Source: a virus
DNA: 64,000 nt
IMG/VR virus record: IMGVR_UViG_3300006754_000011
Coordinates: 10,206 to 74,205 of that record
Direction: 5' to 3' (one strand)
The position numbers were made by a program, and so were the translations under genes. Each line of letters begins with the position of its first letter. Position 1 is the first letter of the stretch. Shown one piece after another: positions 40,151 to 63,704 of this stretch. The notes under the pieces were generated by a model. The model was given only the letters and a program-made list of their open reading frames with translations, did no database searches and was not told where the DNA came from.

Positions 40151-40174
40151 GATTTTAAAAGTGAAAGGATTAAA

Positions 40175-41035: not shown

Positions 41036-41058
41036 AATGGTGTTGGTGAAAGTGCAAA

Positions 41059-41086
41059 GGATGCTTTTAAAGTCTTCCCAGGACTA
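41059..41086 (-). repeat. Leader pseudoknot copy 1
   Basis: AGUC-CUGGGAA-GACU-UUAAAAGC-AUCC. Confidence 0.6.
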
Positions 41087-41097
41087 GTGATTACATT

Positions 41098-51591: not shown

Positions 51592-51634
51592 GTAACAGGG
51601 TGTACTACACAAACTTGTCCTTTAGGTTTATAAT
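51592..51634 (+). promoter_or_regulatory. NtcA-type promoter: GTA-N8-TAC (51592-51605), 23 nt, TATAAT (51629-51634)
   Basis: Near-canonical spacing of NtcA-activated promoters (GTA-N8-TAC-N22-TAN3T). Confidence 0.5.
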
Positions 51635-51658
51635 ACTTTTGTAGCAACCGCTACTAAA

Positions 51659-51718
51659 CGTTCACCTTATGTAATATAAGGCGCAGTTCGACTCAAGCCA
51701 AGGAACGGGGACTTGAGC
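51659..51718 (+). ncRNA. Glutamine-II (Downstream-peptide) riboswitch
   Basis: CGTTCA-[CCTTAT/ATAAGG hairpin]-CGCAGTTCGA-CTCAAG...GGAACGGG-CTTGAG pseudoknot, directly upstream of a DUF4278 gene. Confidence 0.85.
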
Positions 51719-51736
51719 ATTTATCGGACTAAGATC

Positions 51737-51895
51737 ATGAATTCACTTCTTACTTATCGCGGAGTTAAGTACTCTAAGCACGACGTTCAGAAAGCTGTTG
51801 CAAAAAATGCAGAAGAGCTTTCACAAACTAAATCCCCGTTGGTTTACAGACGTATTAATTATCGTCCAGAAATCACAGTAACAAAGACTAAGTAA
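51737..51895 (+). CDS. DUF4278 small protein
   Basis: LTYRGVKY...LVYRRINY; ATG 51737 follows the riboswitch. Confidence 0.8.
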   Translation: MNSLLTYRGVKYSKHDVQKAVAKNAEELSQTKSPLVYRRINYRPEITVTKTK

Positions 51896-52168: not shown

Positions 52169-52519
52169 TTAAGTTAATACAAAATAAGAACATTCTTCTG
52201 CATCTAATTCAGGGATGTCTAGCCGACAAGAATTACCATAATAATGTGTGCATTGATGACAAGATTTTTTAGACTTTAAACTAAGACTGTTTTTTATTTT
52301 AGTAATAATTTTTTTATTACTTAGATACTCTTCATATTCATCTGCAGTTATCTCATAAGTAGTAGCTTTGTATCCACACTGATTACAACGTTTTCTTCTA
52401 CGTCTTAAGAAAGTCTTTGAGTTCCCATGGTTATTACCTCCTGAAGGACGTGATTCTATAACCTGAAATGTTTTTTCAGAGCACTTAGGACACTTACTAG
52501 GTTCTCTTATAAAAGCCAT
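52169..52519 (-). CDS. NrdR-like Zn-ribbon protein
   Basis: KCPKC...VIESR...RRRRKRCNQCGYKATTYE. Confidence 0.75.
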   Translation of the reverse strand: MAFIREPSKCPKCSEKTFQVIESRPSGGNNHGNSKTFLRRRRKRCNQCGYKATTYEITADEYEEYLSNKKIITKIKNSLSLKSKKSCHQCTHYYGNSCRLDIPELDAEECSYFVLT

Positions 52520-52877
52520 TTAATCATTGTTCTCTAACTAACATGTGCTGAACATAAATCTCAGTACTCTTAAAACCATCTCTCAATACTTTGTAATGGA
52601 AACGAGTCGATCCTTTTTTATCAGGAATGTTTTTAGAAGGAATGAATCCATCTTCAAGATCTTCAACAATAACTCCTTTCCATGCGCCTTTACCAATAAT
52701 ACTTAAGCCTTCTTCTCCTGCGAATTGGTTCGTATTCTTTTTAATGACACGATCTCCTTTCTTATATTTAGGAGTTGGCGGACCTTTTCTAGTAGCCATG
52801 TAGTACTTTTTAAAAAGATTGACAACTTCTTTACCATATCTTATTGAGGAGATACGGCTAAAGATTTAAGTAGTTTC

Positions 52878-52906
52878 TTTACAAATCATCTCATTATGCT
52901 TACAAT
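52878..52906 (+). promoter_or_regulatory. Sigma70-type promoter TTTACA-N17-TACAAT
   Basis: -35 at 52878-52883, -10 at 52901-52906, no downstream ORF. Confidence 0.7.
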
Positions 52907-52911
52907 AAAAT

Positions 52912-52958
52912 GTGTGCAAAGGATCGTGGGTTGAGGGTGGTGCCTTAACCCTTTTTTT
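52912..52958 (+). ncRNA. Candidate ~47-nt trans-acting sRNA (seed GUGUGCAAAGGAUC)
   Basis: Promoter, 16-nt unpaired 5' end, 9-bp GGGUUGAGG/CCUUAACCC stem and U7; seed complementary to about 9 early-gene leaders. Confidence 0.7.
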
Positions 52959-53292
52959 ATGCATATATTCAAGACTGGTAGCGGGCGTGAATTTATGTGT
53001 AATTCTGTTTGTATCCAGATGAACCTTACTACTCATCTTACAAATAAAAATATTAATTTTTTATACTTTTATTCTTCAGAGAAGTAATAAAGTTTTTTTA
53101 GATATTCATTATAACCAAGAGTAAAACATTCAGTAAAAAATTCACTGGCTGCCATATCTTTTTTAATTAATGTATGTGCTTTTAAATCTTTAATGAAGCA
53201 ATTGATTTCATTTGCTTCTTTTTCTCCACCAATTGGAAGAACTATCTGATAACGTGACTCAACCATAAAAGGTTTCAGCTTCCTTAGATAGT

Positions 53293-53562
53293 CTACTCTG
53301 CTTTAGATGTAAGATCATTCAACATCAGGAATCGCTTAACTTCTTGATTAGGAGCTTCAATTAGTTTATTAATAGTCTTTAACTTCTTTTCAGCAGTTAA
53401 AGCTCGTTCACTCCAGTAAGCAAGAAGTTGATTGGTACTTCCTAGTTCAGTTTCAAGAGCTGTTTGAAATAAAGATGAAGGACTTATATCAAGGTCAGAT
53501 TCTTTCCACCTGGTAAAGAGTTCATCAGGCACGCTGACGCTAACAACTTGAGCCACTCGCAA
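53293..53562 (-). CDS. Ribbon-helix-helix protein
   Basis: VVSVSVPDELFTRWK...ISPSSLFQTAL. Confidence 0.6.
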   Translation of the reverse strand: MRVAQVVSVSVPDELFTRWKESDLDISPSSLFQTALETELGSTNQLLAYWSERALTAEKKLKTINKLIEAPNQEVKRFLMLNDLTSKAE

Positions 53563-55031: not shown

Positions 55032-57837
55032 TTCATTCTTTTAAATTGGGAATTCGTTCAAATTTTTCATTAACACACGAATCACAGATTACTCCGTGGC
55101 CTGAAAAGTAATGAACATGATGTGGTTCAGAACAATCTGGGCATGTTACTAAGCGTACTCCTTCAGGAGGATACCGGCCTTCTGTTTTTTCATCGAGAAC
55201 TGTAGTAGCAAACGTGGAGGTAATCATAATTCATGACATACATTCCACTCTAAATCTAGAGTATTTAAATAATTTAAAAATTGATTTGAATCTTTAGGAT
55301 CAATTCCATCTTGATGTGGAATGCTTACTGTTGTCCAACATTCTGCAGGACCATACTCTTCTGGTGAAGCTTGGTCAGGAGGATTATAGACAGCAGGATG
55401 AATAACTATTTGGTCTTCTACGATAGCAGTTATTTCATAAATACATTCGTCATTATCAAGAAGAATATCATCATAGGATTCAACAGATAAGATAGACATT
55501 TTTCTTAAGAGTTAGTGAATTTAAAATAGATCTATGAATATTAATCTAGGCCGAAGTGAGAAGTAGTTACAGTAGTCATCGTTTAGCTGGTGGTAATTCT
55601 TTACAATCAGGTGTTCCAATGTCACCTTTGACAAGACCAGGTGCCTTTGGAGAATTTGCTAATGCACTTAATCGAGTGGGCAAAATAAATTTTCCAAAGG
55701 GAGAACAATTTTTAAAACAAACTATTGATACACATAAAGGTCCAATAGTCATGACAATGGCTGAAATGTTTGCTAGACCTGGACAACAAGCAGCAGAACT
55801 TATTCAAAGAGTAGCAACTACTTTGAATGTTGCTAATGCACCTAATAAACCACATAATTTAATTACAGTTAACCCTCAAGTTTTAAGTGGATTACAGAAT
55901 CTAGGAAGAAATCTTAAAGGTATTGCAGCAGTTGATTTTGATTGGCATCCTTCATTAGGATATAAACCAATGGAAGGACCACCTGGTGGATTTGGTAGAG
56001 CTGATACTTCAAAAATTACTAGAGCAGTAGAAGATGCATTTCATAATAAAATCGTACCTGTTGTTCAACATTTAAATCCAGGTAAAACTGTTTGGTTACA
56101 AAATGATCCAACTACATTAAGCAGAGCTAAGCTTTATTCATCAGATTATTTACCACATGGTCGTGCCATGGGTCCATTAGATCCTACAGGTATGCAACAT
56201 AGTTTAATTTTACCTTCAGGACGAACACAAGGAATAGAACTTTTAGGAGGTCCTATACCTTCTAATCTTGCTGCATTTTTATCTAAAGAAGTTTAAAACC
56301 ACTTAGATTTTTTAACAGGATTCTTAATCGTTGAAGTAGAAGTTGTCGCTACTTTATTAGCAGGAGAACGATGATACATTTTTCTATCGAAATGTAAATC
56401 GATTCGTTTCTTACCCCAGTAAAGAGCAACAATCCAAAGAGTAAAGAGGAAGCCCTCTAAATAACTCATTGAATTCCAAGCATCAGTGGCTGCTTCCATA
56501 GTTATCCTCTACTTTGTTGATGGTAACATAAAGTTTTTCTGGTCTTTCTTCAGGAAAGAATTGATCAAAGACAGGACATAACCAGATTTCCATTTCTAGA
56601 TCTTCAGGATCTTCTATATCATCTGGAATATCTACTGGAAAATAGATACTGCCATCATCTTCTGCTCTTACATAGTAAAGAGTCAGATCATTCTTATCAC
56701 CAGACCATTTCTTACTACTAAAGATTACTTCAATTTTAGATACAGATTGATCTTTATATTTACGTTCAAGTAATTTATTAATTAATTTAGTAGCTGCTGG
56801 CATTAATGGTTCATCTTTTATAAGAGAACTATCTTCAAATGTGTAATCAAAGCACCAAAGATCACCTCCTTCTTCAAAGGCATGATGTTGTGGTGTACAA
56901 ATAACAGAGAACATTAAAAGGTCAGACATAAGGTTTATAGAAAAACGCGACAGAAAATAATTCCATCGCGTTTATTTAAAGATTACAATTCATCAAGTCT
57001 ACCGATCAAAAAATCTTCAGGTCGTTTAGAAAAAGTTTCTTCAACACCTGTCCAATCTTCTGGATCAGTTTCCATCATCAACCTTCGCTGTTCTTCAACA
57101 GCGTCAGCTGCTATGAAATTTAGATCTTGTTCATAGTCTTTAAAGTAAGAGCTACACACAGTTGAAGTCATTTTACTAAGTCCTTGGCCATTTTATAAGC
57201 AGTATTCTTTATCTCAGTTTCGTAAGAAGTAACAGGAGTTTTAACTTCATGTTCTCTTTCTAATTGAGATAAAACATCTGTATAAAAAGGAGTACCTGGA
57301 CCATAACGTTCAACTGTATATTCTGGGAACGCTTTTATAATGCGTTCTTTATTTTCTGAACTTGCATAAGCAAGTGTTTGAGATAACGCTTTAACAAAGG
57401 AGCCACCAAAGGTAGCCATACCTTCTCGCATTCGTAACATCTCTTCAGAATTCATTGGTGTGATAGCAAAGGAATAGTAGTGGACTTACACCTCCTAACC
57501 AGAAATGGATGTAGGGATGCCACTCACTATTAAGGATGATTAATTGTATTTTTAAGGAATATATATAGCAAGATAACTACACATATCCAAACAATAAAAC
57601 TAGTCATAATTAATCCCAGATGTTAAAGACATCTGCTTCACCTACACGATAACTATCTACTTGAGTAGTAGACTTGTTACCAATGATATGAAAAACTTTA
57701 GAGGCTGCTAATCTAAATGCATGAACAGTAAGTTGTCCAAGAGCTGATCTATTGCTAGATTCAATTCTTACTGGATCAGTACTGCCAAGATTACCGCCAA
57801 TAGGATCGTAAGTCATAATTAAATAGCAAAGGATTAA

Positions 57838-57867
57838 TAAGACTTTTAAAGTCATTCTTCAGGACTA
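57838..57867 (-). repeat. Leader pseudoknot copy 2
   Basis: AGUC-CUGAAGAAU-GACU-UUAAAAG-UCUU. Confidence 0.65.
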
Positions 57868-57978
57868 TTCGGTTGTCACTCCCTTTTAGGTGTAACAACT
57901 ATAGCGAATCGTGGATACCGAAGCTCTTACTTCGGTTCTCCTCGTTTTAAAATGTTATAAATCAAGTAAGAATGTATT

Positions 57979-59394: not shown

Positions 59395-60943
59395 TTAATA
59401 TATCTCTAAGATTTTATTAGGACTTTATATTCGTGTTTTAATTTACCTTCTTTATAAACATGAGCTTTAGTTATGTATCTATCACTCATTATGCGAGCAA
59501 AGTGTTGGCATACATGTCCATTCTTAAAGTAAAAATGAGTTGTCATGTTATCAAACTTACATGACCATTTGCCTTCATCCTCTTTACAACGTTTCTTAAT
59601 AGTGAGAGCAATTTTCTTATCTAATTCTTTATTGACTTCTCTAGAGTTATAGAATGTTAATGGATAATAATTAGCCATTAGGTAACCTCCTCTTGTAGGG
59701 TTGTGCAATCAATTCGTTCATCATCCTGATAACAAATAATTTTCTTATACTTATCTTCTCTTTGCTCCATATAATTACGAGCAAGTAAAGGATTGATAGA
59801 TACTTTGGCATAATATTCAAAATCAATATCATAGCCACTATCATTATGGTTTAAAAAGAGAGAAATATAACAACCTTCAACAGGAACTTGTACAGAATGC
59901 TTAACTTGCGTTAAATACTTAGTTGCATGTTCTTTAATCATATTGTGAGTACAAATTGTACCTGGATTAACAATTTTTAAGAAACCTATTGTAGCGTCAA
60001 GTTCATAGTCATCCCAATGAATTGTTGGTTGATGTGCTGTTGTAATTGGAAGCATGAATTAATTTCCTATATATAAGGTAAATAACGCGAGCGTTAAAAT
60101 TATAGACGATGATTCCATGAATGCTCTTAATGTTAACTTTGCTGTAGTCATCAGAATAAAATGCAGTCAGAGAAGACTGCAGAGAATCTAATCGATTCAG
60201 TGCAATCATCAAGTATCTTTAACATATTGGAATGATTAAGACAACATAAAAAAACCAGAGAAGTTTTACCTCCTCTGGCCTTATTGTTATAGAGAACTAG
60301 CTAATCTCCAGAGTCTGAAGCTTAACTTTAGTATCCTCTATAAATTTGGAAACTTTAGGTGCAACATATGCATAAAGTTTCTTGCCGTCCTCCATTAAGT
60401 TATTCCATTCTTTGGTATGTTCATCAGTTCTTAACCTGAAATCACTTTCATAGCTAAGACGAGACTTACCAAACAAAGGAATCATCTGTGGAGTACCTTC
60501 TTTGAGAGAAGAGATGTGCTCTTCTAAGCTGGTAATCTTGGCTTCTAAAGTTGCCTTCTCTTGATCAGTCATTACTTTCTGTTCTTCCATCAATAGATTT
60601 AAACGCTCATTCGTAGAATAAGCCATAGATAACTCAGCAGCTTGCGAAGCTAGTGCTTGTTCTCTTTCTATTATGGTAGAGGAGATTGTTTTGAATGATT
60701 TATAAAAAGACTCTTTAGAACCTCTCTTGTACTCAGCAAGTAAATTTAACTGAGCAGGAGTCATGTTACTAACATCATCTTCGATAACTTCAGCAACCTC
60801 TGAGTTAATTTCTAACTGTTCGGTAGCTGTAGGAACTTCAGTAGTGACATTAGTTTCCATAGCCACGATTGGCATAGAAGAAGCTTGTCTTCTAGCTCTC
60901 TTAGAGGTGTTACGTCTAGACATAAATCTAGTGCAAGGGACAA

Positions 60944-60970
60944 GAGCCTTTTAAAGACGTACTCAGGTCA
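60944..60970 (-). repeat. Leader pseudoknot copy 3
   Basis: GAC-CUGAGUAC-GUC-UUUAAAAG-GCUC. Confidence 0.7.
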
Positions 60971-61022
60971 AAAGTTGAGGGAGGAATTGCACCTCCCCAA
61001 GGTCACTAGACTCAACTCACTA

Positions 61023-61394
61023 CTAAGAAGTAGCTACAACTTCCTTGTTGCTTTCAGCTTCAACACGTTGTGCTCGGCTGGCTTCACCAAGTCTTACGGT
61101 TATAGGACTGTCAGTTAAGACAACCTCCATACGACTGCGACGCTCACCATTCTCTGTTTCCCAAGTCTTATAAAGAAGCCTATAAGTTACAGAGATAGTG
61201 TCGCCTTGGTTGTAGCGACTAAGGATGTTGTTACCAATACCGTTGTACGCGGTAAGAGGTATGGCAGAATCTTCATCAGAACTGCCAACAGGCTTCACTC
61301 GAAACTCTGTTACTGTAAAGGAACCTTTAGGATTCCTCTGAGCAATACGAGAGACGATAGTGCCTGTGATACCACCGAAGTTGGTAGGATTCAT
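61023..61394 (-). CDS. ssb: Single-stranded DNA-binding protein (start at 61394, after GGAG)
   Basis: GDTISVTYRLLYKTWETENGERRSRMEV; OB-fold pattern. Confidence 0.7.
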   Translation of the reverse strand: MNPTNFGGITGTIVSRIAQRNPKGSFTVTEFRVKPVGSSDEDSAIPLTAYNGIGNNILSRYNQGDTISVTYRLLYKTWETENGERRSRMEVVLTDSPITVRLGEASRAQRVEAESNKEVVATS

Positions 61395-61420
61395 GGATAA
61401 ACTCCATAAGGTGTACAAAG

Positions 61421-61447
61421 GAATAGTTTTGTGACTTATTCAGGTCA
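61421..61447 (-). repeat. Leader pseudoknot copy 4
   Basis: UGAC-CUGAAUAA-GUCA-CAAAAC-UAUUC. Confidence 0.7.
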
Positions 61448-62054
61448 ATGCCATGCCAGGGGATTTGATCCCCCAGCTCATGCTTATGACATGGCAGCTT
61501 TAGTGCATGAATGTTTTTCATAGCAATCTCTCATCTGTTCAAGAAATTCTTTAACAGATGTATCTGGAACAACAGTAGAAACATCTTCTGTCTTCCAGTA
61601 AGGATTACCTTCAGAATCAATCATCTGAACTTGATATTCAAGAGCGTGTAATTGCCTACCTGGTAGATAAGCAACACGATCAAATTCTGGGCTTAAAGGA
61701 TAAGTCCAAGGTTGAATACGTGGCATTGTAATAATGCAAAGGACAAGGGAATGAATCCCTCAGTCTGCCTAAGAAAAGGCAGAGGGAGAGAGTCAGTTAG
61801 TTGAGTAACCTTTCTCTTGGCAGAACCTCATGTGCCTATCATGTTGTTCTGGAGACCAGTCTTGAGTGAGACATTGCATTCTCGAAAAGTAATTGAAGGA
61901 AGTAATTGTCACTAAAGGATAAGTAATTCCAACAGTTAATATGAAAGTACAAGTCGCAAGAAAGGCTTTTGTGTGGTAGTCCATAGTGTTAATACGAATG
62001 ATTAAGAAAAAATAAAGACCAGAAGATATAACTCCTGGTCTAAATCTTGTCTGC

Positions 62055-62288
62055 TTAGTTGTTAACTAGACCTCTAAGACTTAAATCAATGCTCTCGCAT
62101 TTCTTGTAGCCTTTGTTGTCTATTAAACTCTTTACAGACTTCCGAATCACTGCGATTGGAGCACTCAACATGGTGTAACGACTGCAACCATTAGCAGGAT
62201 CAACATGCAATAGTTCAGCCATATCACCATGTACATTCACGAGATAAGCATCATGAATGTTCTTTTGATATTGAAAAGAAGCCCACAT
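62055..62288 (-). CDS. Hypothetical early protein (start MWASFQ at 62288)
   Basis: ATG 8 nt downstream of the shared leader motif. Confidence 0.5.
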   Translation of the reverse strand: MWASFQYQKNIHDAYLVNVHGDMAELLHVDPANGCSRYTMLSAPIAVIRKSVKSLIDNKGYKKCESIDLSLRGLVNN

Positions 62289-62718
62289 GGTGGTAAGTGC
62301 GAAGGACACAGGGAAGAACCCTGTAGGAAATCCACCTCCCAAGAAGGGAGGAAGGACTAAGTACAGAGATCACTTGGTCTCTACAAATTCAACGAAATCA
62401 CTTACATCAACTTCGACTTTGCTGACAGGAGAAGGTACAACCTCAAGTTTCTTGGGTTCTACTTTCTTGGCAGCGCGAGGCTTTCTAGTAGCTTTCGCTT
62501 TAGTTGTAGATTTAGTTACCTCTATTGCATCAGGTCTTATCCACTCAGCAAGTTGAACTCTTGCTTCGTCGGTCTTAGCTCTTATTGCGGTACGTAGCTT
62601 AGATTTCTCATCGGTGGTAGCACCAAGGAAACTCAAGACTCCAGTACCAGCAACAAGTCCAGTGCCGAGGAGTAAGACAGCTTGATTACCTTTCATGGTA
62701 GAAAGTGCAAAGGATAAC

Positions 62719-62745
62719 GAATAGTTTTAAGACATATTCAGGTCA
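62719..62745 (-). repeat. Leader pseudoknot copy 5
   Basis: GAC-CUGAAUAU-GUC-UUAAAAC-UAUUC. Confidence 0.7.
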
Positions 62746-63129
62746 AAACCGAGGGTGAGGAATTGAACCTCTCCAACACATATAAAATGTGTTCCATCAT
62801 CTCGGCTCGATTTATCGTCTCGATAGACGACACCTGTTGGTGCTAAGAGAGGATGTGGACTGTATAGACTGACCTGCTGCAGACAGGCCAGCCACGAGGA
62901 ACCATCTCGCAACATTTACGACTACTTGGTTAGGTAGAAGGCAGAGAACGACTCTGCATATTTAGCCACCAGGCGTTACCTGGCTCTGGTGAGGACCACT
63001 CACACATTTCCGACCTGCTGGTTAGACAGGAAGGCTACGTTTAACGTCCAGCTTGACGCGAATGATAGATATAAAGAAAGCTATGTTTAACGTCAGGGAC
63101 AGCTCGACGGACGAATAAATGAAGCATTT

Positions 63130-63156
63130 AGCAGTTTAAAGACATGCTTAGGTCTT
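63130..63156 (-). repeat. Leader pseudoknot copy 6
   Basis: AAGAC-CUAAGCAU-GUCUU-UAAAC-UGCU. Confidence 0.7.
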
Positions 63157-63165
63157 GAGCTATTG

Positions 63166-63333
63166 CTAGCTCAGTGAAGCTTGGAACTCTGCTAATTCAT
63201 CGTGTGGGAAATCTGAACAGACTTCACCACCCGAATCCTTAGCAAAGGACTCAGCTTCCACTAGAGAATTAAATTCCCTAGTGTCAGGACACATACGTCC
63301 ACCGCGGTCGACGTAGAAATCCACATAAAACAT
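63166..63333 (-). CDS. Small acidic protein (55 aa, MFYVDFYVDRGG...), absent from the ORF track
   Basis: GGAGG SD 6 nt upstream of the ATG; clean ORF. Confidence 0.65.
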   Translation of the reverse strand: MFYVDFYVDRGGRMCPDTREFNSLVEAESFAKDSGGEVCSDFPHDELAEFQASLS

Positions 63334-63379
63334 GGATAACCTCCATGAGTGCGGTGCTCATCTCCGCTGGGAGCTGACG

Positions 63380-63406
63380 AAATAGTTTAAAGACATACTT
63401 AGGTCT
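63380..63406 (-). repeat. Leader pseudoknot copy 7
   Basis: AGAC-CUAAGUAU-GUCU-UUAAAC-UAUUU. Confidence 0.7.
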
Positions 63407-63461
63407 ATAAATACCGAGGGAGCGGAATCGAACCTCTCCTACACCATCTCAGTGAAAACAC

Positions 63462-63486
63462 ACAGTTTAAAGACATGTTTAGGTCT
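63462..63486 (-). repeat. Leader pseudoknot copy 8
   Basis: AGAC-CUAAACAU-GUCU-UUAAAC-UGU. Confidence 0.65.
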
Positions 63487-63704
63487 AAATACTATGCGGG
63501 TTAATAACCCTAGATATACTTATATAAGTTAAAGAAGTGTCTTCTAGACTGAGTAATTCAGTTTTCCACAAGCTCTGCCGGAGTACAAGACCTTGTAAGG
63601 CGACTCATCTTCTGACGGCCCCGTCCCATATAAGGAGCGGGAACGGTTAAAAAGGAGGGAAAATAGGGGAAAACGGGTATAAATACCTTGTTTATGCCTA
63701 TTTC

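Follow-up and report, generated by a model that had tools for sequence, protein, structure and literature searches.

The c4 RNA of phages P1 and P7 and the CI RNA of satellite P4 are phage immunity RNAs that pair with repeated sites before their own early ribosome-binding sites; they are cut from the leader of the operon they control, act at two sites on one transcript, belong to temperate elements, and trigger termination (reviewed in PMC12197685). RybB, OmrA/B, and MicC are host-encoded, Hfq-dependent sRNAs that combine a 5′ seed with a Rho-independent terminator and have many host mRNA targets, near the ribosome-binding region. The main photosynthetic bacteria of the ocean lose a large share of their cells to cyanophages, whose gene timing has, to our knowledge, so far been explained only by promoters and T4-type proteins. 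In phage T4, the early protein RegA recognises loose AU-rich sites close to the start codons of numerous early mRNAs and shuts off their translation as a class (PMC3014915). The sar RNA of P22 is small, runs against the flow of an early operon, and is fully antisense to the ant ribosome-binding site, and CfrI, about 225 nt long, is a cis-antisense RNA at psbA in the lytic cyanophage S-PM2 (PMC12197685). For cyanophages, a recent review of phage sRNAs gives only cis elements and CfrI (PMC12197685).

The locus described here lies in a window of 64,000 nt that forms the right-hand part of a 74,205-bp virus record and has a GC content of 36%. On the minus strand of the window lie psbA and the genes for a primase and a family-A DNA polymerase, and on the plus strand lie tail genes; these genes, together with a glutamine-II riboswitch, identify the virus as a cyanophage. 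Among isolated phages, Synechococcus phage S-EIV1 is the nearest, its primase being just 35% identical. The riboswitch (73.8 bits, 51656-51717 (+)) is preceded by a promoter-like TACACA-N17-TATAAT and followed by a 60-aa ORF, and this plus-strand unit (51606-51895) sits inside the minus-strand early region. A preliminary description of this DNA had called the region otherwise minus-strand, but it also contains the riboswitch and its ORF at 51656-51895 (+). Gene starts were called by a simple script, and the comparison of the small RNA took in six related lineages (seven sequences counting the window).

Anatomy and conservation of the small RNA locus

The elements first described at 52878-52958 (+), namely TTTACA-N17-TACAAT, a free seed, a 9-bp stem, and U7, are all present. 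By sequence and consensus scan, the −35 hexamer TTTACA occupies 52878-52883 (+) and, after a 17-nt spacer, the −10 hexamer TACAAT occupies 52901-52906 (+). The start site is inferred to lie 6-8 nt past the −10 hexamer, which puts the predicted 5′ end and the single-stranded seed, GUGUGCAAAGGAU, at 52912-52924 (+). The intrinsic terminator follows at 52928-52958 (+); its 9-bp stem (arms GGGUUGAGG and CCUUAACCC, 52928-52936 and 52943-52951 (+), with one G·U pair) encloses the loop GUGGUG and leads into U7 at 52952-52958. The hairpin folds with −15.4 kcal/mol, leaves the seed unpaired, and is among the best terminators of the 50-64 kb region. The promoter scores 10/12 in the consensus scan, but promoter-like sites in the same region are at chance density (41 found against 46 expected from shuffled DNA), and the promoter call therefore rests on conservation and not on the scan. 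The predicted RNA is about 45 nt long in the window and 65-85 nt in relatives.

Three metagenome contigs spanning the locus (L123, L124, and L126) were retrieved through homologues of the 91-aa neighbour, the neighbouring protein being 68-71% identical, and relatives of the primase led to phage records that are whole or large: G002 (86 kb), G003/G004/G005, and G006 (84 kb, with terminal repeats). Primase identity to the window is 74% for G004 (with G003 and G005) and 60% for G006. In L123, L124, L126, and G002, both hexamers and the 17-nt spacing are unchanged while the spacer sequence has diverged, the seed begins 6-7 nt past the −10 hexamer, and all 13 seed nucleotides are identical to those of the window. 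The 8-nt core of the seed, GUGCAAAG, is identical in all seven sequences; in G004 and G006, it lies between other hairpins, with a terminator present and GAUAAU or UAAAAU upstream (the G006 RNA reads GUGUGUGUGCAAAGCAAC). The stretch between seed and terminator is variable: 3 nt in the window, a UUUUCC-GUGGU-GGGAAAA hairpin in L123-L126, and a longer AU-rich hairpin in G002. An MAFFT alignment of all the homologues misplaces the seeds. In the six homologues that were folded, either the MFE or the centroid structure leaves the seed free (centroid for G002 and G006); the folds of L123 and L126 draw CAAAGGAU as paired with bases past the U-run, which would be absent from the terminated RNA.

Despite differing stem sequences, the terminator helix is fully paired on the seed-sense strand in seven of seven sequences. 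Positions 4-6 from the loop show compensatory changes (AU/GU/CG, UA/UG/CG, and UA/UG/CG/GC), and each copy has one or two G·U pairs, which on the opposite strand are A·C mismatches. The loop GUGGUG and its closing pairs (GG:CC) are invariant in five of the seven sequences, the loop being GGUGGUAG in G004 and AGUAGUG in G006. A second hairpin in relatives (L123: 1150-1170, L126: 2140-2160) has the loop GUGGU and so repeats that of the terminator, which suggests, from sequence, that the loop itself may be functional. Just beyond the terminator, the block TATATTCAAnnCTGGnnGCG at 52959-52990 (+) is shared by L123-L126 and G002, whereas G004 and G006 do not conserve it; it is not coding, since the variable T-run would break the frame.

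The absence of any ORF, as originally reported, is not strictly right: mechanical ORFs of 36 aa on the plus strand (52912-53022) and 56 aa on the minus strand (52866-53036) cross the locus, although both are lost in relatives. The T-run is 7, 8, or, in a near-identical strain, 9 nt long, and the locus in relatives carries indels of 19-49 nt that are not multiples of three; a coding frame is thereby excluded, and a peptide gene or a minus-strand ORF was rejected as an explanation of the locus. The conserved hexamers (where recognisable) around a diverged spacer, the invariant core, the compensatory stem, and the strand-specific G·U pairs, seen across six lineages, bear out the original assignment of a small RNA gene to the plus strand, and we regard such a gene as very probably real on this comparative evidence.

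As originally stated, the RNA does not correspond to a described element in Rfam: at gathering score, Rfam 15 matches only the glutamine-II riboswitch in the window and leaves the sRNA unmatched, and a permissive scan of 52700-53150 gave Virus_CITE_4 as the best hit, at 17.8 bits against a threshold of 40. A blastn search of the locus against isolated phages had no match. A 14-mer scan of viral contigs returned chance matches only, mostly to a terminase KCAKDP coding motif, and a pattern search for TACAAT plus seed returned zero. Patterns of seed, gap, and loop gave 2 viral and 15 genome matches, all of them chance hits in unrelated DNA at no more than the expected count, with no cyanobacterial copy. 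In the distant isolate S-EIV1, the seed and box words are absent from either strand beyond one chance 8-mer copy, and the viral-contig search with the 91-aa neighbour found no relative.

Upstream, the RNA converges with the end of an operon that includes a conserved 89-aa gene at 53293-53562 (−), a synteny recovered by tblastn in G002, G004, and G006; in all four genomes (G000, G002, G004, and G006), the RNA points at this operon end, and the 89-aa protein is 62-68% identical. The protein (VSVSVPDELF...SPSSLFQTALE) begins β-α-α and by eye resembles a ribbon-helix-helix repressor; Pfam and PHROG searches with it gave no match, and its AlphaFold model has a pLDDT of 43. On the other side, a divergent promoter-like TTTGCA-N16-CATAAT at 52893-52920 (−) overlaps the sRNA promoter and has its −35 hexamer inside the seed complement; judged by sequence, it is probably the promoter of the 91-aa gene at 52524-52799. 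TTTGCA-N16/17-CATAAT is kept in L123 and L124, with TACAAT in L126. G002 has neither the 91-aa gene nor its minus-strand promoter, yet it keeps the seed and the plus-strand promoter. No conserved minus-strand ORF or start codon lies opposite the sRNA or after the local copy of the box in any lineage examined, so this copy is not a leader box. With no minus-strand ORF downstream and with the seed kept in G002, the conservation of the locus is best explained by the plus-strand RNA itself. Two genes downstream of the sRNA, at 52169-52519 (−), a 116-aa protein has an NrdR-like zinc ribbon (PF22811, 36 bits).

The box in the early leaders

The complement of the seed is a box, (A/G)UCCUUUGC(AC), found upstream of the AUG in minus-strand early leaders, at a distance of 7-8 nt in six of them and of 10-18 nt in three. 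The recurrence of the seed word on the plus strand, noted from the outset, is seen in GCAAAGGA, which has eight copies on that strand and one on the other, and the nine sites originally listed were all found. The AUG-near boxes, all on the minus strand, are AUCCUUUGCAC at 62705-62715 (8 nt before the AUG of a 108-aa gene starting at 62696; predicted duplex −17.6 kcal/mol), GUCCUUCGCAC at 62297-62307 (8 nt before AUG 62288 of a 77-aa gene; −13.7), GUCCUUUGCAU at 61734-61744 (7 nt before AUG 61726; −15.9), GUCCCUUGCAC at 60931-60941 (7 nt before AUG 60923; −13.7), AUCCUUUGCUA at 57824-57834 (7 nt before AUG 57816; −13.5), and UUCCUUUGCUA at 57464-57474 (8 nt before AUG 57455; −15.0). Two boxes on the same strand lie further from the AUG. 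That of the ssb-like gene, UCCUUUGUACAC at 61411-61422 (tabulated form UUCCUUUGUAC), lies about 16-18 nt before AUG 61394, with a GGAG ribosome-binding site in between (−18.7), and a further copy of AUCCUUUGCAC at 41052-41062 lies 16 nt before AUG 41035 of a 286-aa gene (−18.2). A weak box-like site, AUCCUUUCAC at 40161-40170 (−), stands 10 nt before the adjoining Gp157-like gene (start 40150; −10.9); it is not conserved in G002, G004, or G006, and it is probably not a target of the sRNA.

The names first attached to these genes need some revision. The 286-aa protein, labelled SWIM, has no Pfam or PHROG match. The ssb label comes close, with SSB at 25.7 bits and thus just under the Pfam cut-off of 26, while the Gp157 label falls further short (24.2 bits against a cut-off of 28.6); the site before the Gp157-like gene does exist, but it is weak and unconserved as a target.

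The box is enriched close to starts. The pattern TCC[CT]T[TC]GC has 12 copies in the genome, of which seven lie 9-18 nt before a start on the same strand where 0.28 would be expected (p=2.5e-9); a count of box words by strand and distance to starts was one of the checks proposed at the outset, and it came out in favour of the box. A looser box pattern set against a liberal background (any ATG-ORF of at least 40 codons) still gives start-proximal enrichment, at p=0.009. Duplex prediction, another of these checks, gave a mixed answer: 8-9 leaders reach −13.5 to −18.7 kcal/mol where the others stand near −9, but 84 sites genome-wide are at −13 kcal/mol or below when G·U is allowed. Moreover, nine leaders were also reached by 5 of 400 shuffled seeds and by 4 of 600 random genomic 16-mers. 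Since about 1% of such controls match the leader count and the genome-wide sites are so many, duplex energy alone is unspecific, and the statistical case therefore rests on the position of the box word, not on energy. The boxes before the starts at 60923 and 62288 have U-to-C changes facing A residues of the seed, and the predicted accessibility of the boxes in folded leaders is only average (0.41-0.75).

Both the sRNA and the boxes are present in G000, G002, G004, and G006. A further relative, G001 (ssb 84% identical), ends short of the sRNA locus and contributes leaders. In orthologous leaders of G001 and G002, the core is kept as (U/C)C(C/U)UUUGC and the spacing stays at 7-8 nt, while the flanks and the bases between box and AUG differ. 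The box of the ssb-like leader is kept in G001, G002, and G004, that before 61726 in G001, and that before 57816 in G001 and G002; the orthologues of the 60923 leader read GUCCUUUGC in both G001 and G002, those of the 57455 leader CCCUUUGCUA (G001) and UUCUUUGUUA (G002), and those of the 41035 leader AUCUUUUGCAC (G002) and UUGUUUUGCAC (G006). At the orthologues of the 62696 leader in G001 and G002, the boxes are degenerate (AUCCUUCACAC and GUUCUUUACAU) with the spacing unchanged. The start-proximal word in G006 is CUUUGCA[CA], with 7 of 13 copies near ATG-ORFs (p=4e-5), and it complements the part of the seed that G006 retains.

Covariation of seed and target in relatives, which had been proposed as a check, was found at some leaders and not at others. 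The G004 seed, which continues ...GGACAGU, forms 15 contiguous pairs with its own ssb leader, ACUGUCCUUUGUACA, where foreign seeds form 13 at most. In G006, where the seed has GCAA in place of the GGAU found elsewhere, the orthologue of the 41035 leader (UUGUUUUGCAC) makes 11 pairs with its own seed against 8 with other seeds; the change from GGA to GCA in the seed is matched by UCC to UGU in this leader. On the other hand, no more than 7 contiguous pairs join the ssb leader of G006 to the G006 seed, the G004 orthologue of the 41035 leader pairs no better with its own seed than with foreign ones, and the 62696 orthologues of G001 and G002 have the degenerate boxes described above. Each lineage-specific extension is by itself marginal, at about 5-10% after allowing for the number of leaders. 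We consider these sequence comparisons suggestive of seed and box changing together, in part, between lineages.

The boxes belong to leaders of unusual architecture. Where the box is at −9/−10, the leader has no Shine-Dalgarno (SD) sequence, while three of the four distal-box leaders carry GGAG. The spacing of 7-8 nt to the AUG is fixed; as occlusion by the sRNA would need no fixed spacing, this suggests that the box itself also takes part in initiation. On the minus strand, a leader cassette recurs in eight copies (60960-63490, 57840-57870, and 41060-41090), each with a tRNA T-arm-like hairpin of the GGUUCGAUUCC type and an acceptor-like stem, then CCUGAAUAnGUCUUUAAAAC and a tail (UAUUC); several of the boxes follow. 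The loop and the tail change jointly between copies (GAAUA/UAUUC, AGACA/UGUC, and GAGUA/GCUC), and CCUGAAUAnGUCUUUAAAAC with its tail fits a small H-type pseudoknot. The cassette, which had no match in an Rfam search, might be an mRNA processing or ribosome-recruiting module. A reading of box and cassette as a promoter was rejected, because the supposed −10 changes in step with the 'loop' before it, as expected of an RNA pseudoknot, and because an AUG comes 7-8 nt later. In several box leaders (60900-62700 (−)), the AUG lies within a small hairpin right after the box (CUAGA-uuuAUG-UCUAG at 60923, GCAUU-auuac-AAUGC at 61726, and AUGGA-guuua-UCCAUG at ssb). CACCA or ACCAC occurs within −20..−1 of 3 of 9 box leaders compared to 1 of 123 other genes (p=9e-4), so a second contact of the sRNA with leaders is possible; CACCAC-type words before starts are not enriched genome-wide in any of four genomes.

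A proposed role in early-gene control

Because the free 5′ stretch of the RNA mirrors a box upstream of about eight start codons, it probably controls the translation of these early genes jointly. On balance, we lean towards a stand-alone, trans-acting sRNA (52912-52958 (+)) that would pair with about eight of the phage's own early leaders and turn them down together. The RNA would be transcribed from its own σ70-type promoter and ended by the intrinsic terminator, and its unpaired 5′ stretch, GUGUGCAAAGGAU, would pair with (A/G)UCCUUUGC(AC) in about eight minus-strand early leaders, those of the ssb-like and 286-aa genes included. The duplex would cover about −9 to −20 from the AUG, within the 30S footprint of mostly SD-less or SD-poor leaders, and would hinder 30S binding; given this position and the lack of SD sequences, the duplex most likely keeps ribosomes off and lowers the early genes together. 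Such an RNA could serve as a shared off-switch that accumulates alongside its targets. That it is transcribed, that it pairs in vivo, that it represses its targets and does not activate or stabilise them, and when it acts are all inferences. The trans-acting sRNA at early leaders that was proposed at the outset thus fares well in the comparison as regards the gene and the shared box, and silencing seems the most economical reading, with some backing from the lineage-specific gains in pairing of G004 and G006; the Gp157-like gene probably drops out as a target.

The strict spacing suggests that the box could be a landing signal in its own right, which the sRNA would mask. We put forward tentatively, and as a doubtful rather than a probable extension, that the box, fixed at 9-10 nt before the AUG, is a phage-specific, SD-independent ribosome-landing signal and the last module of a cassette of T-arm-like hairpin, pseudoknot, and box, that the sRNA is its dedicated anti-signal, and that seed and boxes co-evolve. 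If this holds, the early class as a whole would be switched off (or on) at once by an all-RNA circuit, belonging to a clade of marine cyanophages distantly related to S-EIV1.

A real RNA with a local role is rather unlikely in our view. The RNA would then counter read-through transcripts from the upstream operon (the 89-aa and 65-aa genes) in antisense or convergent fashion, or compete with the divergent promoter of the 91-aa gene; its effects in trans would be incidental, and it would match leaders only because the locus contains a further copy of a box with a different function, such as an SD-less recognition signal for ribosomes or a protein. The convergence with the same operon end in G000, G002, G004, and G006 and the overlapping minus-strand promoter conserved in L123-L126 (TTTGCA-N16/17-CATAAT, or TACAAT in L126) would both be expected of a local function, and another purpose for the box would account for its fixed spacing, for the lack of a ribosome-binding site at AUG-near boxes when three of four distal ones have GGAG, and for those orthologous boxes that lose complementarity while keeping position. 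It accounts poorly for a local box after which no lineage has a minus-strand ORF, and for G002, where seed and plus-strand promoter persist without the 91-aa gene and its promoter. Nor would a −35 hexamer need all 13 seed nucleotides to be invariant in five sequences, and the lineage-specific extensions of pairing involve leaders that are distant.

The invariance of the GUGGUG loop and its GG:CC closing pairs in five of seven sequences, the second hairpin of L123-L126 with its GUGGU loop, and the CACCA/ACCAC words in three of nine box leaders against 1 of 123 others (p=9e-4) could also point to a real RNA whose main partner lies elsewhere, be it the mRNAs of the host or some protein or RNA specific for the terminator loop, GGGUGGUGCC, with the 5′ stretch secondary. 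We find this quite improbable, since the loop differs in G004 and G006 and since CACCAC-type words are unenriched before starts in four genomes. We give almost no credence to the absence of any RNA gene, that is, to a promoter-like site that happens to stand by a plus-strand terminator or to a short peptide gene running through the hairpin. Promoter-like sites are indeed at chance density in this AT-rich DNA, the 36-aa plus-strand ORF exists, and L123 has an SD-like AAAGGA before a GUG ORF. However, four further sequences conserve the hexamers while the spacer has diverged, there is no upstream plus-strand gene for the terminator to end, and T-runs of 7, 8, and 9 together with the 19-49-nt indels break every frame. 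We therefore retain the trans-acting RNA as the preferred reading of the locus.

Comparison with described regulatory RNAs

If our preferred reading is correct, cyanophages would gain their first described sRNA that acts in trans on several targets; this RNA would parallel the RegA protein and would illustrate the control of SD-poor leaders in these hosts. The seed/box pairs of six lineages constitute ready, natural 'compensatory mutants'.

RegA resembles the proposed system in that one product acts against a class of early genes; the proposed repressor here, however, is an RNA and would recognise a defined box by base pairing. The sRNA shares with CfrI its origin as a non-coding RNA of a cyanophage, but CfrI has no multi-target seed. 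Like sar, the RNA of the window runs against operon flow, and the P22 operon also holds small repressor genes; the repressor-like fold of the 89-aa neighbour is a candidate by eye. Unlike sar, it has no start codon opposite it. Assignment to the cis-antisense RNAs of the sar/OOP type was rejected, as the sRNA would overlap only read-through RNA of the upstream operon.

By prediction, the locus has the architecture of 5′-seed sRNAs, with its own promoter, a single-stranded and conserved seed, a terminator, and several complements in start regions. It resembles RybB and its kind in being stand-alone, with a seed at the 5′ end, a Rho-independent terminator, and several predicted start-region sites, and it differs from them in being phage-encoded and in having phage leaders as its predicted targets. 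With the c4 and CI RNAs, the candidate shares repeated complementary sites (the boxes of 8-9 leaders) in the phage's own early genes. Its own promoter, its place on the strand opposite to its targets, and the lack of any match in Rfam, the C4 family included, exclude it from their type. Where those RNAs are cut from the leader of the operon they control, the sRNA of the window has its own promoter and terminator, a 5′-terminal seed, and complementary boxes in about eight dispersed leaders.
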